From assembly GCF_003334765.1 (NCBI RefSeq), contig NZ_QOWT01000002.1: a stretch of DNA of 64,000 bases; one strand, given 5' to 3'. The position numbers and the translations under genes are program-made. This document shows, piece after piece, positions 13,491 to 16,261 of this stretch. Positions within the stretch are counted from its first letter, which is position 1. The number at the start of each line of letters is the position of its first letter. This stretch comes from Escherichia coli (GTDB lineage Bacteria > Pseudomonadota > Gammaproteobacteria > Enterobacterales > Enterobacteriaceae). The notes under the pieces are model-generated. The model was not told where the DNA came from. It did no database searches and saw only the letters and a list, made by a program, of their open reading frames with translations.

Positions 13491-13567
13491 CGGCACGTAG
13501 CGCAGCCTGGTAGCGCACCGTCATGGGGTGTCGGGGGTCGGAGGTTCAAATCCTCTCGTGCCGACCA
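13491..13567 (+). tRNA. proL: tRNA-Pro (anticodon GGG)
   Basis: 77 nt CGGCACGTAGCGCAGCCTGGTAGCGCACCGTCATGGGGTG...GTGCCGACCA with acceptor stem, GGG anticodon loop, T-loop GGTTCAAATCC and 3' CCA. Confidence 0.93.
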
Positions 13568-13580
13568 AAAATCCCAAGAA

Positions 13581-13609
13581 AAAACCAACCCTTACGGTTG
13601 GTTTTTTTA
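13581..13609. terminator. Bidirectional rho-independent terminator (proL / yejO)
   Basis: Hairpin aaccaacc-ctta-cggttggtt flanked by an A-run and a T-run, so it is terminator-like on both strands. Confidence 0.75.
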
Positions 13610-13669
13610 TATCTGCAATTAATTCGATAAACAGACCGTGACACATCACAGCCTGTTTATTTTCTGTTA

Positions 13670-16261
13670 TCAGAACGTCCAGACCACACCCGCCTGAGTA
13701 TTCCACGGCGATTCTACCCCTGCGCCATTGCCATAGCTGACTGACAAATGACCGCTTAACGTCGGGGTAAACGATGACCTTATACCAGCCTGATAAACGC
13801 CACTGGTTCCAGCCACATCATTATTAAATTTGCCATCGTCATTAACTTTCACCTGGTTAGAATCGGCGTATTCCTGACGCACGGCCGCTTTCAGCCAGGG
13901 TTCCAGCGTCGTACCGTTTTGCAGGTCCATGTGATAGCTTACCGCCGTTCCCGCTTCAGCGCGTAATATCCGGGTATTTCCCACATCCGCGCGCATGCCG
14001 TTTGATAACGTGTAGTCCTGACCATCTGTGGTAAAGCCGGTAAAGGCCAGATAGGGTCTAACACTCCACAATCCGTCAACCCAACGGAACCCGCTCTCAA
14101 CATGAGCACCCGCGCCGTTACTATTGTAATCGCCAAACGCTGTTGCCCCATTACTCATCTTGCCATGGATGGTGTTGGCAAAACGGTCAACTTTCACCAC
14201 CCCATCAACATAGGCACCGTTCTGATGCTCCCAACCGGCATAAGCCCCCAGGGTATAGCTATCGATATTACCTTTGCCGCCGCGATCAAAACCAATATCA
14301 GAATGAGAGTAACCAAAGATCAAGCCGCGAATTGTACTGCTTTCTTCACGGGAGAAACGGCTATCGATACCGAGCGTCAGGCCCGTCAATGTTTGCTCAA
14401 AACCAGCTCCCGCATCAGTGGTCACGTTGTTGCGGGTGTTAATTGCCGAACTCCACATCGCCGTATCGTAACTAACGCCTTTTACGCTACCAAGACGCTC
14501 ACGCACGGTGTCCAGTTCTGCATCAAATACCAGCGGTTGTGCGGCCGCCATATTCAGCACATCAGTGGTTGAAGGGGTAATTTGCGCGCGATTCTCTGCC
14601 AGACTCCAGCTATGGTTGCCATTATCCAGCAAGGTATATTCATACGTACCGATATCAACAACGCCTCCGGCATTGCCCAACGTAAATGCAGCATCACCGC
14701 CGCCCGTTGTTACCAGTGTAAGGCTATCTCCTGCTGCCGGGCTGGCACCGGTGTCCGTCACGAATATTTTGAAATCACCTGTTGCCTGACCGGTGACGTT
14801 GAGCTGATCGCTCTGATGATTAGCCATATCGGTACGCATATAAAAATTGCCGTTTCCCGACAGGGTATTGGTGGTCAACGTAATGAAATTTTCCGCACTT
14901 GCCGTCACTGATGAACGAGTCACTGGCTCATCCATCATAATCACATTTGCGTCAGACATCGCAAGGTTGGCTAAGTTGAGGAGGGTGTTTTGGTTCGTCG
15001 TAGTGATATCGGCAATGATGGTCCATACGCTATTTTCGAGCGAAACGTCCGCTTTGCTGGTATCCACGGCACCATGCGTTCTAAAAGAAGCGCCCTCAGA
15101 AACCACTACCTTACCCACCAACATTGCGGGTGCATAATTTATTTGCGGCTTCATGACCTCAAGAATGCCATCATTCCCTCTGACTGAAACGTTAACCATT
15201 GTGCCAGCCCAGACGTTAGCGCGGCCATTGTTGATAACCATATTTTCAGAGATGGCTTTTGAGGAATACGTGATACTTCCATTCTGATATGATCGACCGA
15301 GATCATATACCGCATTTGCCTGCACTTTCGTACCAGTATCCTTTCCCAGCGATTGCATAGTGGCATGCTTATCAAGGATAGTATCAATGGCCTGCGTGTC
15401 CTCCATAACAATGAGCCCGGAACCATCATCCAGTTCATAATTTTTTGACACACCATCTTTTATACTAAATTGGCCTTTACTGTTTGGACCACTCACTTCC
15501 AGCGCATTCGTTGAGACAATTAATTTTCCGCCTGCTTTTTTATCAACGCCAGTTACAGTCCCGCCATCCATAACCTCCAGTAAGCCGCCACTATCTACAG
15601 TGGTATTATAAGCGAAGTCATTTTCTTCAACTCGCAAACTTCCGCCGTTTTCCAACAACATATTATTAGCAATACCATTCTTGATATCGAACTGACCGAG
15701 ACGGTTTGTTCCGAATACCTCCATGGCCCGCGTGGTTGTTTTAATAGCACCGCCTGCTTTCTGATCTACCGCAAATGCAAATCCCCCCTCTTTAACCTCC
15801 AGTAGTCCTCCCTTTTCGATAGCGACAAAGACGGCCCCCCCATCTTTTTCAACGATTAAGCGCCCGCCTTTAATCGTGGTATCATTCGCTGCGCCATAAA
15901 CCTGTAGCACACCATTATTGAGCGTAGTCTGGTTTGCCGCGCCACCCATTTGAACAATTTGATAACCGTCATTTAATACTGAGTATTCTGCGGCGCCATT
16001 CATTTCAATGTACTGATACCCTCCGTTAATTTCAGTATTATTACTTACACCAAATTCTTTTATATGCTGTTCTCCGCCAGGATTGATTTTCGTATTATTG
16101 GCGGTCCCATAAACCAGCTGGATATCTTTTTCCAGGACAACACCATCAACTGTCTCACCATACTCAACAGTTGATGCCAATGCTATGGGTGAATATAACG
16201 CTGTAGCCACCAGAACAGATATTGCGGAACGACAAAGAGAAACAGAACCAGATTGATGCAT
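13670..16261 (-). CDS. yejO: Type Va autotransporter (adhesin-like passenger plus C-terminal beta-barrel), apparently intact
   Basis: 863 aa; signal peptide MHQSGSVSLCRSAISVLVATALYSPIALA; passenger with repeated GG-x-L/V beta-helix-like segments; C-terminal domain ending ...VVWTF (aromatic terminal residue typical of outer-membrane barrels). Confidence 0.88.
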   Translation of the reverse strand: MHQSGSVSLCRSAISVLVATALYSPIALASTVEYGETVDGVVLEKDIQLVYGTANNTKINPGGEQHIKEFGVSNNTEINGGYQYIEMNGAAEYSVLNDGYQIVQMGGAANQTTLNNGVLQVYGAANDTTIKGGRLIVEKDGGAVFVAIEKGGLLEVKEGGFAFAVDQKAGGAIKTTTRAMEVFGTNRLGQFDIKNGIANNMLLENGGSLRVEENDFAYNTTVDSGGLLEVMDGGTVTGVDKKAGGKLIVSTNALEVSGPNSKGQFSIKDGVSKNYELDDGSGLIVMEDTQAIDTILDKHATMQSLGKDTGTKVQANAVYDLGRSYQNGSITYSSKAISENMVINNGRANVWAGTMVNVSVRGNDGILEVMKPQINYAPAMLVGKVVVSEGASFRTHGAVDTSKADVSLENSVWTIIADITTTNQNTLLNLANLAMSDANVIMMDEPVTRSSVTASAENFITLTTNTLSGNGNFYMRTDMANHQSDQLNVTGQATGDFKIFVTDTGASPAAGDSLTLVTTGGGDAAFTLGNAGGVVDIGTYEYTLLDNGNHSWSLAENRAQITPSTTDVLNMAAAQPLVFDAELDTVRERLGSVKGVSYDTAMWSSAINTRNNVTTDAGAGFEQTLTGLTLGIDSRFSREESSTIRGLIFGYSHSDIGFDRGGKGNIDSYTLGAYAGWEHQNGAYVDGVVKVDRFANTIHGKMSNGATAFGDYNSNGAGAHVESGFRWVDGLWSVRPYLAFTGFTTDGQDYTLSNGMRADVGNTRILRAEAGTAVSYHMDLQNGTTLEPWLKAAVRQEYADSNQVKVNDDGKFNNDVAGTSGVYQAGIRSSFTPTLSGHLSVSYGNGAGVESPWNTQAGVVWTF

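Follow-up and report, generated by a model that had tools for sequence, protein, structure and literature searches.

An intact autotransporter gene that ends opposite a tRNA gene raises two questions: did it arrive there by a recent integration, and does its product still act at the cell surface? We consider both for a locus in a 64,000-nucleotide stretch of an Escherichia coli contig (NZ_QOWT01000002.1), which we refer to as the window. The feature itself is already known: it is E. coli yejO (b2190 in K-12), annotated in RefSeq as 'autotransporter YejO'.

An intact autotransporter gene convergent to proL

An earlier note, made from the letters of the window, had described an uninterrupted 863-residue YejO convergent to tRNA-Pro(GGG), and the open reading frame list, ARAGORN and Rfam all bear this out (Table 1). 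Translation of the window gives a single open frame that starts with ATG and whose protein ends in ...AGVVWTF, and the opposite strands of yejO and proL make the gene pair convergent. The 102 nt that separate the two genes contain a hairpin with predicted folding energies of -15.7 kcal/mol on the plus strand (z -5.25) and -15.4 kcal/mol on the minus strand (z -3.55). This hairpin is kept in Citrobacter, immediately 3' of proL, and the proL sequence is 100% identical across most Enterobacteriaceae loci. On the other side of the gene, which faces the divergent narP, a sigma-70 scan of the minus strand over 16262-16500 returned no promoter-like site at 9 or more of 12 matches, so that no promoter can be proposed. 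A 23-nt inverted repeat (78% complementary; 13607-13629 and 16275-16297) flanks the open reading frame; being AT-rich and built on a 9-nt seed, it is probably a chance match and not the mark of a transposon-like cassette. Elsewhere in the window, a 1539-aa open reading frame matched no NCBIfam family.

Table 1. Features of the proL-yejO locus (positions in the window)
Feature	Position	Strand	Basis or remark
tRNA-Pro(GGG), proL	13491..13567	+	ARAGORN; Rfam RF00005, 54.9 bits
Last 19 nt of proL, att core of integrative elements in other strains	13549..13567	+	single-copy in window
Bidirectional intrinsic-terminator hairpin, common to proL and yejO	13578..13608 (approx.)	both	A-run, 6-bp GC-rich core stem, T-run
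yejO coding sequence	13670..16261	-	863 codons + stop, intact; ORF list
12-strand outer-membrane beta-barrel, residues 600-863, C-terminal ...VVWTF signal	13673..14464	-	PF03797, TIGR01414, AF2
Alpha-helical linker, residues 563-592, predicted through barrel pore	14486..14575	-	AF2 helices 563-573 and 575-592
Passenger, residues 31-561, right-handed beta-helix	14579..16171	-	AF2, Foldseek, phmmer
Pertactin-type C-terminal passenger domain (autochaperone region), residues 431-555	14597..14971	-	Pfam PF03212, E 3.2e-45
Two tandem ~74-aa AIDA-type repeat units, residues 184-315	15317..15712	-	Pfam PF16168 x2
Signal peptide, residues 1-30, predicted cleavage after ALA	16172..16261	-	sequence inspection
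K-12 IS5 site (ATAA, codon 22), empty in window	16195..16198		comparison with K-12 derivative
yejO 5' region, AT-rich, Escherichia-specific; presumed promoter/leader	16262..16468	-	GC 0.368 for 16000-16499

Every module of a classical, type Va autotransporter is present in the window gene. The earlier note had named a signal peptide, a beta-helical passenger and a barrel ending in WTF, and Pfam, NCBIfam, AlphaFold2 (AF2) and Foldseek recover this arrangement. The N-terminus (MHQSGSVSLCRSAISVLVATALYSPIALA/STV) resembles a Sec signal peptide, as judged by eye, and AF2 leaves residues 1-28 disordered (pLDDT <50). Residues 30-561 are modelled as short beta strands with a period of roughly 20 residues; the Gly-rich peptide that the note had quoted, DGGAVFVAIEKGGLLEVKEGGFAFAVDQKAGG, corresponds to residues 140-171. 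AIDA-type repeats are recognized by Pfam at 184-245 (E 7.7e-24) and 257-315 (E 1.5e-21), with weaker copies from residue 51 onwards, and the heptosylation-target repeat TIGR04415 reaches 65 bits (cut-off 30). Some strains are short of one of the two tandem AIDA-type units, without loss of the reading frame; the 789-aa in-frame variant at one of the compared loci (L109) is an example. The Pertactin-type domain matches the pertactin structure 1dab. The autotransporter beta-domain PF03797 covers residues 602-841 (E 8.8e-45) and TIGR01414 reaches 369.5 bits (cut-off 16), in agreement with 12 long strands over residues 600-862 of the model and an aromatic C-terminal residue. Mean pLDDT of the model is 83, with weak values over residues 140-262.

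Is the intactness of this copy special, as the note had implied? The identical protein is encoded in BL21(RP) (WP_000554226.1) and in three further sampled strains (L104, L106, L111), and about half of a sample of E. coli chromosomes carry an intact gene, so this part of the note does not hold. The 90% identity cluster of the window protein has 16,859 members, and its representative, also an 'autotransporter YejO', is 98% identical to it. The note's statement that the K-12 gene is IS5-associated or a pseudogene proved correct: in a K-12 derivative, codon 22 is interrupted by an IS5 of 1195 bp with a 4-bp duplication (ATAA), IS5 in K-12 yejO has been reported (PMC11005336, PMC11677980), and the K-12 gene is treated as a pseudogene, whereas the window has the uninterrupted allele. 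Outside IS5 the derivative is colinear with the window, with 100% identity over 13300-16198 and two mismatches in 16195-16700. Because its copy is disrupted, K-12 is ill suited to the study of YejO. An allele identical to that of the window is present in BL21 and many commensals, and could be expressed to seek a phenotype for an uncharacterized adhesin-like protein. As a discovery the gene carries little weight, given that it is named, listed in virulence-factor catalogues and found in thousands of genomes.

An old resident of the proL-narP interval

Where did yejO come from? The position next to a tRNA gene had led to the proposal of an acquired islet, and the idea of a recent, strain-variable element integrated at tRNA-Pro draws on several observations. 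An empty site exists: two Citrobacter loci (L006, L008) have proL and narP 207 bp apart, without yejO. At a GC content of 0.482, yejO has the lowest third-position GC of 40 window genes (GC3 0.465; mean 0.580, sd 0.047; z about -2.4), and the GC content upstream is 0.37. Finally, satellites and prophage remnants are proven to attach at proL in other strains. Against this, DNA from the yejO locus lies between proL and narP in every one of 5426 complete E. coli genomes, so that the site is never empty within the species, and the gene is equally resident, at the same synteny, in E. albertii as well as in a divergent Escherichia lineage with 75% amino acid identity. Full-length locus DNA is found in 4282 of the 5426 genomes. 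The codon-usage distance of yejO is average among window genes, in contrast to its GC3, and its dS (0.79, as against 0.39-0.62 for the flanks) is taken as about equal to that of the flanking genes.

The architecture of the segment also speaks against a recent integration. The Escherichia-specific part, about 2.86 kb, consists of yejO and its 5' region only, with no integrase, mobility gene or other open reading frame, and the window holds no second copy of the proL 3' end (32-nt or 19-nt, with up to 3 mismatches). The junction lies past the proL terminator and not inside the tRNA, because the empty Citrobacter site is homologous through the terminator; homology of the Citrobacter spacer then picks up again only at about 16470, past the yejO 5' region. 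Where mobile elements do use the site, they enter the gap that separates yejO from proL and do not carry yejO, which stays next to narP: at four loci (L085, L088, H20, H21), homology to the window restarts at 13549, on the far side of an inserted element that resembles a satellite. Phage satellites often land at the proL-yejO junction, which makes the neighbourhood strain-variable and leaves yejO itself stable. Citrobacter islets of 1.3-3.3 kb between proL and narP were considered as relatives of yejO; tblastn with YejO gave no match in them, implying that they are unrelated.

We conclude that yejO has long resided in the Escherichia proL-narP interval and is not a recent islet. Recent acquisition is largely refuted, and we give a strain-variable islet hardly any credence; acquisition of the segment at proL stands in an ancient, weak sense only, for which the Citrobacter empty site and the low GC3 speak.

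Frequent lesions, constrained alleles and a probable surface function

The state of the gene varies within the species. Intact or broken status was scored on an evenly spaced sample of 29 E. coli chromosomes, of which 14 carry a disrupted yejO. At least five classes of lesion occur among them: IS5 (K-12), IS2, the nonsense mutation W789stop, a frameshift and large deletions. W789stop is common, with five copies, three of which also have ATG changed to ATT; the large deletions form two coverage classes, 44% and 49%, with breakpoints read for the 44% class in APEC O1. ST131 has been reported to be without yejO (PMC5654935). Disruption in 14 of 29 chromosomes shows that the gene is dispensable.

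Might yejO then simply be cryptic, decaying slowly and without present function, and the window copy one that has not yet been struck? The many lesion classes and the reported absence from ST131 fit this notion, as does a dN/dS 7-10 times above that of the neighbours (0.20-0.21 overall, compared with 0.00-0.03 for yejM, narP and ccmH). The empty sigma-70 scan points the same way, and so does the scarce detection in K-12, where yejO expression is low and the gene is among the least-detected of an RNA-seq compendium (PMC10392735). Those expression data, however, concern the IS5-disrupted copy. Moreover, a dN/dS of 0.2 (0.07-0.10 in the barrel, 0.17-0.38 in the passenger) sustained across a dS of about 0.8 is far under neutrality, and the open reading frame is kept at 862-864 codons in lineages as distant as 75% amino acid identity. 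The ratio indicates, on sequence grounds, that intact alleles are under purifying selection, and we regard plain decay as unlikely. A more elaborate possibility is that selection on yejO is conflicting, in that intact alleles are constrained and independent knock-outs recur in about half of sequenced E. coli. We find this rather doubtful; if true, it would go beyond plain neutral decay and fit a surface protein that is useful in some niches and a liability elsewhere, for instance where phages use it as a receptor or immunity targets it.

What might the protein do? We consider it probable that yejO is an old, dispensable chromosomal gene for a type Va autotransporter of the AIDA-I/Ag43 type that displays a surface beta-helix, most likely an adhesin or aggregation factor. 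By analogy with its family, the precursor would be exported by Sec, and BAM would insert the barrel; the passenger would be threaded out from its C to its N terminus, with the autochaperone seeding its folding, and the beta-helix would come to lie on the cell surface. There it may serve as an adhesin or cell-aggregation factor, as homology to Ag43, AIDA-I and TibA suggests. In laboratory culture the gene is probably silent. The view that its function is essentially unstudied agrees with the searchable literature, in which we found no functional study and no aggregation or biofilm assay of YejO; what it does contain is a K-12 delta-yejO strain serving as a wild-type-like control, work on IS5, tables of gene presence and absence, and a screen for immunogens.

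YejO among characterized autotransporters

How close is YejO to autotransporters of known activity? A first group, comprising pertactin, BrkA and Vag8 of Bordetella and the translocators of EspP and NalP, is homologous to the C-terminal 400 residues only, that is, to the autochaperone, linker and barrel; the N-terminal passengers of these proteins are unrelated in sequence to that of YejO. BrkA and EspP are the closest solved relatives of the barrel: the BrkA beta-domain (3qq2) superimposes with a TM score of 0.90, and Foldseek matches EspP and NalP as well. Sequence matches to solved structures include Vag8 (7akv, 8.6e-36), the BrkA barrel (6.6e-19) and pertactin (5.9e-18). The presence of Vag8 and BrkA in this list could be taken to mean that the YejO passenger is not adhesive and confers complement or serum resistance, or acts as an enzyme. 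Those two matches, however, are confined to residues 459-863 (autochaperone and barrel), whereas the N-terminal passenger matches only adhesins, namely Ag43, the AIDA-I family and TibA; a Pfam search of YejO shows neither a protease nor a lipase nor any other catalytic domain, and a PADLOC scan of the protein gave no match. A non-adhesive passenger is therefore very unlikely in our estimation, and an adhesin-like one remains our preferred reading.

The glycosylated adhesins AIDA-I and TibA, from diarrhoeagenic E. coli, share with YejO a beta-helix built from imperfect repeats, and the TibA structure 4q1q matches at E 4.5e-28. The YejO passenger is much shorter than theirs, and they differ in context too: AIDA-I and TibA have a cognate heptosyltransferase of the aah/tibC type adjacent, whereas yejO has proL and narP as neighbours, with no open reading frame between. 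The score against the AIDA-I equivalog (NF033176) is 73.8 bits, below its cut-off of 1200.

The best match to the YejO passenger in both sequence and fold is the self-associating antigen 43 (Ag43; Flu/Cah). The comparison with known adhesins that had been suggested for the passenger gave phmmer values of 1e-36 to 9e-38 for Ag43, and the Ag43 structures 7koh (E 3.2e-19) and 7ko9 are the top Foldseek matches; by eye, a block of about 120 residues (query 121-242, chain 244-362) is some 50% identical. Both proteins combine AIDA-type repeats with a pertactin-type autochaperone and a 12-strand barrel. The Ag43 gene lies at a different locus, and YejO reaches 130.7 bits against the Ag43 equivalog (NF033177), again below a cut-off of 1200. 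Scores this far under the Ag43 and AIDA-I cut-offs mean that function is not simply transferable. Among the best 150 representatives listed, the closest full-length proteins other than YejO are at most 45% identical over the matched stretches, and the nearest two (P0125, P0126) are located on short metagenome contigs, whose gene neighbourhoods are uninformative. Judged by sequence, then, YejO is an orthologue group of its own, separate from both Ag43 and AIDA-I.

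An annotated gene in an ordinary chromosomal setting

From an annotation perspective, yejO is an ordinary gene that has been named already: RefSeq lists it as "yejO: autotransporter YejO" between yejM-tRNA-Pro and narP, and the 3.2-kb yejO region matches all complete E. coli genomes (5426/5426). The window's protein is 100% identical to WP_000554226.1, which is annotated in BL21(RP) and in three more of the sampled strains. It shares 98% identity with the representative of a cluster named autotransporter YejO, which was built at 90% identity and has 16,859 member sequences. The intact gene and its convergent tRNA neighbour proL are as an earlier note had described them; the two lie 102 nt apart. 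The peptide quoted in the note corresponds to residues 140-171 of the window ORF translation. Because a hairpin in the spacer is placed between an A-run and a T-run and folds stably on both strands, it is a bidirectional terminator shared by yejO and proL. In isolate SY033, an IS4 copy is located inside this spacer; it leaves yejO intact and may cut the gene off from the shared terminator. A 23-nt imperfect inverted repeat (13607-13629 / 16275-16297; 78% complementary, AT-rich, core GCAATTAATT) brackets the yejO ORF almost exactly and is probably a chance match.

Features located in the window
Feature	Position	Strand	Remarks
yejO ORF	13670-16261	-	uninterrupted; ATG start, 863 aa, ends ...AGVVWTF
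tRNA-Pro(GGG), proL	13491-13567	+	only tRNA gene found; tRNA search and Rfam
Hairpin with flanking A-run and T-run	~13578-13608	both	folds at -15.7 / -15.4 kcal/mol
naRNA4 (REP-type) repeats	30501-31035	+	five copies; Rfam
naRNA4 (REP-type) repeats	42805-42995	-	two copies; Rfam
MicF	39051-39144	+	Rfam
L25 ribosomal-protein leader	9750-9775	+	Rfam

The naRNA4 arrays, MicF and the L25 leader all belong to what one would expect in this part of an E. coli chromosome. An uninterrupted 1539-aa ORF (55766-60385, minus strand) with MG2, A2M bait-region and A2M domains encodes a bacterial alpha-2-macroglobulin-like protein, for which NCBIfam yielded no matching model; we take its K-12 counterpart to be yfaS, an annotated pseudogene.

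The window stems from a close relative of K-12, not from K-12 itself. Its first 25 kb match several ordinary E. coli chromosomes (e.g., H3, NCTC9100, ML35) at ~100% identity, and in the yejO region it differs from the K-12 derivative GB2005 by two single bases in narP (16595 and 16675) and by a 1195-bp IS5, which interrupts codon 22 of GB2005 yejO and has duplicated the 4 bp ATAA (16195-16198). This insertion agrees with the published status of K-12 yejO as an IS5-inactivated pseudogene, whose deletion serves as a wild-type-like control (PMC11005336; PMC11677980), and bears out what the earlier note had said of K-12.

Recurrent inactivation and purifying selection

How common is an intact yejO? 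We took 30 evenly spaced records from the match ranking, including 29 chromosomes; RefSeq annotation was read for 23 of these, and the ORF was translated in 21. Fourteen of the 29 carry the intact 863-codon gene (H1, H2, H5, H6, H7, H9, H10, H14-H20), one an in-frame variant of 789 aa (H23), and 14 a disrupted allele. Intact yejO is thus present in roughly half of genomes, in a sample that is small and drawn from a collection biased to clinical isolates. Taken together with a published comparison that reports yejO missing from ST131 (PMC5654935), these counts imply that the intact gene is neither rare nor universal; the window's ORF is intact as proposed, but this is not remarkable.

The disrupted alleles comprise one IS5 insertion of the K-12 type, one IS2 insertion, one frameshift in an NCTC assembly that is possibly a sequencing error, five W789stop alleles lacking the last barrel strands, and six large deletions, five of which were classed by coverage and product name alone. 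In APEC O1, the equivalents of window positions 13700-14328 and 14706-15859 are missing. The W789stop allele is common to loci L092, L095, L096, L097 and L105, three of which also carry ATG->ATT at codon 1, and gene callers report its product as a 771-aa protein (cluster P0026 and many similar clusters). The 789-aa YejO, found in strain LSN03-016011/A (L109), is short of exactly one ~74-aa AIDA repeat unit (window-equivalent ~15530-15751) and apparently arose by recombination between the two tandem units; further in-frame length variants among the YejO clusters span 790-829 aa.

Intact alleles are under purifying selection. Pairwise NG86 comparisons with an E. coli allele of 92% identity (L084) and with one of 75% identity from a divergent Escherichia lineage (L083) gave an overall dN/dS of 0.20-0.21, with 0.07-0.10 for the barrel and 0.17-0.38 for the passenger, whereas the flanking yejM, narP and ccmH reached only 0.00-0.03. 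Selection on yejO is therefore far more relaxed than on its housekeeping neighbours, as is typical of a surface protein. By far the most diverged segment is the middle of the passenger, residues 331-430 (dS 1.8 and dN 0.69 against L083; dS 0.62 and dN 0.15 against the 92% allele), and window 14870-15179 (residues ~361-464) does not align with the L083 allele at the DNA level. Together, these observations suggest a mosaic or recombined segment. The only angle that we consider mildly interesting is this repeated, independent inactivation of yejO beside purifying selection on its intact alleles.

Origin of yejO and insertions at proL

Given its position beside a tRNA gene, yejO had been proposed to be an acquired islet. 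Among 80 Enterobacteriaceae loci, fetched through YejM and searched for proL, YejO, NarP and CcmH, the yejM-proL arrangement is essentially universal, and in two Citrobacter loci without yejO (L006, L008) proL is followed by narP-ccmH after 207 bp. Homology between E. coli and Citrobacter spans proL and the terminator to ~13610 and restarts at ~16470, ~110 bp before the narP start (alignment A1), which delimits an Escherichia-specific segment of ~2.86 kb that contains nothing but yejO and the AT-rich region 5' of it (GC 0.37). Composition gave a divided answer: with a GC3 of 0.465, yejO ranks last among the window's 40 long ORFs (mean 0.580, sd 0.047), yet its codon-usage distance is average. 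E. albertii (L017) and the L083 lineage have yejO at the same site, the dS of yejO against L083 (0.79) is comparable to that of the flanks (0.39-0.62), and among the best 150 matches from 1.84 billion representative proteins, no full-length protein beyond the YejO cluster exceeds 45% identity, with the similarity mostly in the barrel. The most economical reading is that yejO was gained once in an Escherichia ancestor and then descended vertically. Alternatively, the gene may have been lost on the Citrobacter and Salmonella side. As an ancient event, a gain beside the tRNA is in keeping with the empty Citrobacter site and the lowest GC3, but no signature of mobility is left: the segment contains no integrase, the tRNA 3' end is not repeated in the window, and the junction lies beyond the terminator, not within the tRNA. 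A strain-variable islet was rejected, the gene region being in all 5426 complete E. coli genomes.

proL itself is actively used as an attachment site. Some E. coli (L085, L086, L088; also H20, H21) have an element inserted between the tRNA and yejO at the equivalent of 13549-13567, and homology to the window restarts at 13549, that is, with the last 19 nt of proL. In L085, L086 and L088 (~8600-14595) it encodes AlpA, a head-decoration protein, major capsid protein E, a Nu1-type small terminase, SSB and a D5-type primase, and this phage-satellite-like element resembles capsid-forming phage-inducible islands. E. albertii NBRC 107761 (L017, 11914-20164) carries an 8.25-kb element with integrase, transcriptional regulator, primase and SSB between proL and yejO; Citrobacter sp. 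R56 (L009, 11911-15205) a 3.3-kb islet with an integrase remnant and a 48-nt tRNA-end direct repeat at its borders; and Salmonella diarizonae (L016, 11911-17558) an islet after proL, with a 31-nt repeat of the tRNA 3' end 5.6 kb downstream. In Shigella flexneri 1c, published mapping puts a prophage remnant in the interval from tRNA-Pro to yejO (PMC4924310). In every case yejO stays on the narP side, outside the mobile DNA. Three other Citrobacter loci (L004, L010, L013) carry 1.3-3 kb of unrelated DNA in this position downstream of proL.

Expression, architecture and relatives of YejO

Expression of yejO in the laboratory is probably low: a K-12 RNA-seq compendium has yejO among its least-detected genes, although the copy there is IS5-disrupted (PMC10392735), and a sigma-70 scan found no promoter-like site upstream. 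The AT-rich 5' region makes silencing by H-NS plausible; a literature search found no data on H-NS action on yejO. The same search, with subscription-journal surveys of E. coli autotransporters outside its coverage, found no functional study of YejO, in keeping with the earlier note's remark that its function is essentially unstudied.

What might YejO do? Pfam places strong AIDA repeats at residues 184-245 and 257-315, with weaker copies from residue 51, a Pertactin domain at 431-555 (E 3.2e-45) and an autotransporter beta-domain at 602-841 (E 8.8e-45), and finds no catalytic domain; PADLOC gave no defence-system match. In NCBIfam, YejO clears the thresholds of TIGR01414, the generic model for autotransporter barrels (369.5 bits, cut-off 16), and of TIGR04415, which models strand-loop-strand repeats (65.2 bits, cut-off 30), and scores far under the cut-offs of the equivalog models for Ag43 (130.7 against 1200), AIDA-I (73.8 against 1200) and BafA (206 against 700). 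An AlphaFold2 model from a 61-sequence alignment (A2; mean pLDDT 83, pTM 0.66) has a disordered N-terminus (1-28), a beta-helix (30-561, less confident over 140-262), helices (563-592) and twelve long strands (600-862). YejO thus has every structural requirement of a classical type Va autotransporter of the AIDA-I/Ag43 type, largely as anticipated. By analogy with this family, we envision that the precursor would be exported by Sec and its barrel inserted by BAM, that the passenger would be secreted from C to N with the autochaperone seeding its folding, and that the displayed beta-helix would mediate adhesion or cell-cell aggregation.

The passenger is homologous to characterised autotransporter adhesins. 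Among solved structures, Ag43 is the best match (7koh, 1e-36; 9e-38 using the passenger alone), and the AIDA-I-family adhesin 7ko9 and TibA 4q1q are matched as well; Ag43 also ranks first when the model is compared with the PDB by Foldseek (E 3.2e-19). The C-terminal 400 residues match the Bordetella autotransporters Vag8, BrkA and pertactin, and the modelled barrel resembles the translocators of BrkA (TM-score 0.90), EspP, AIDA-I and NalP.
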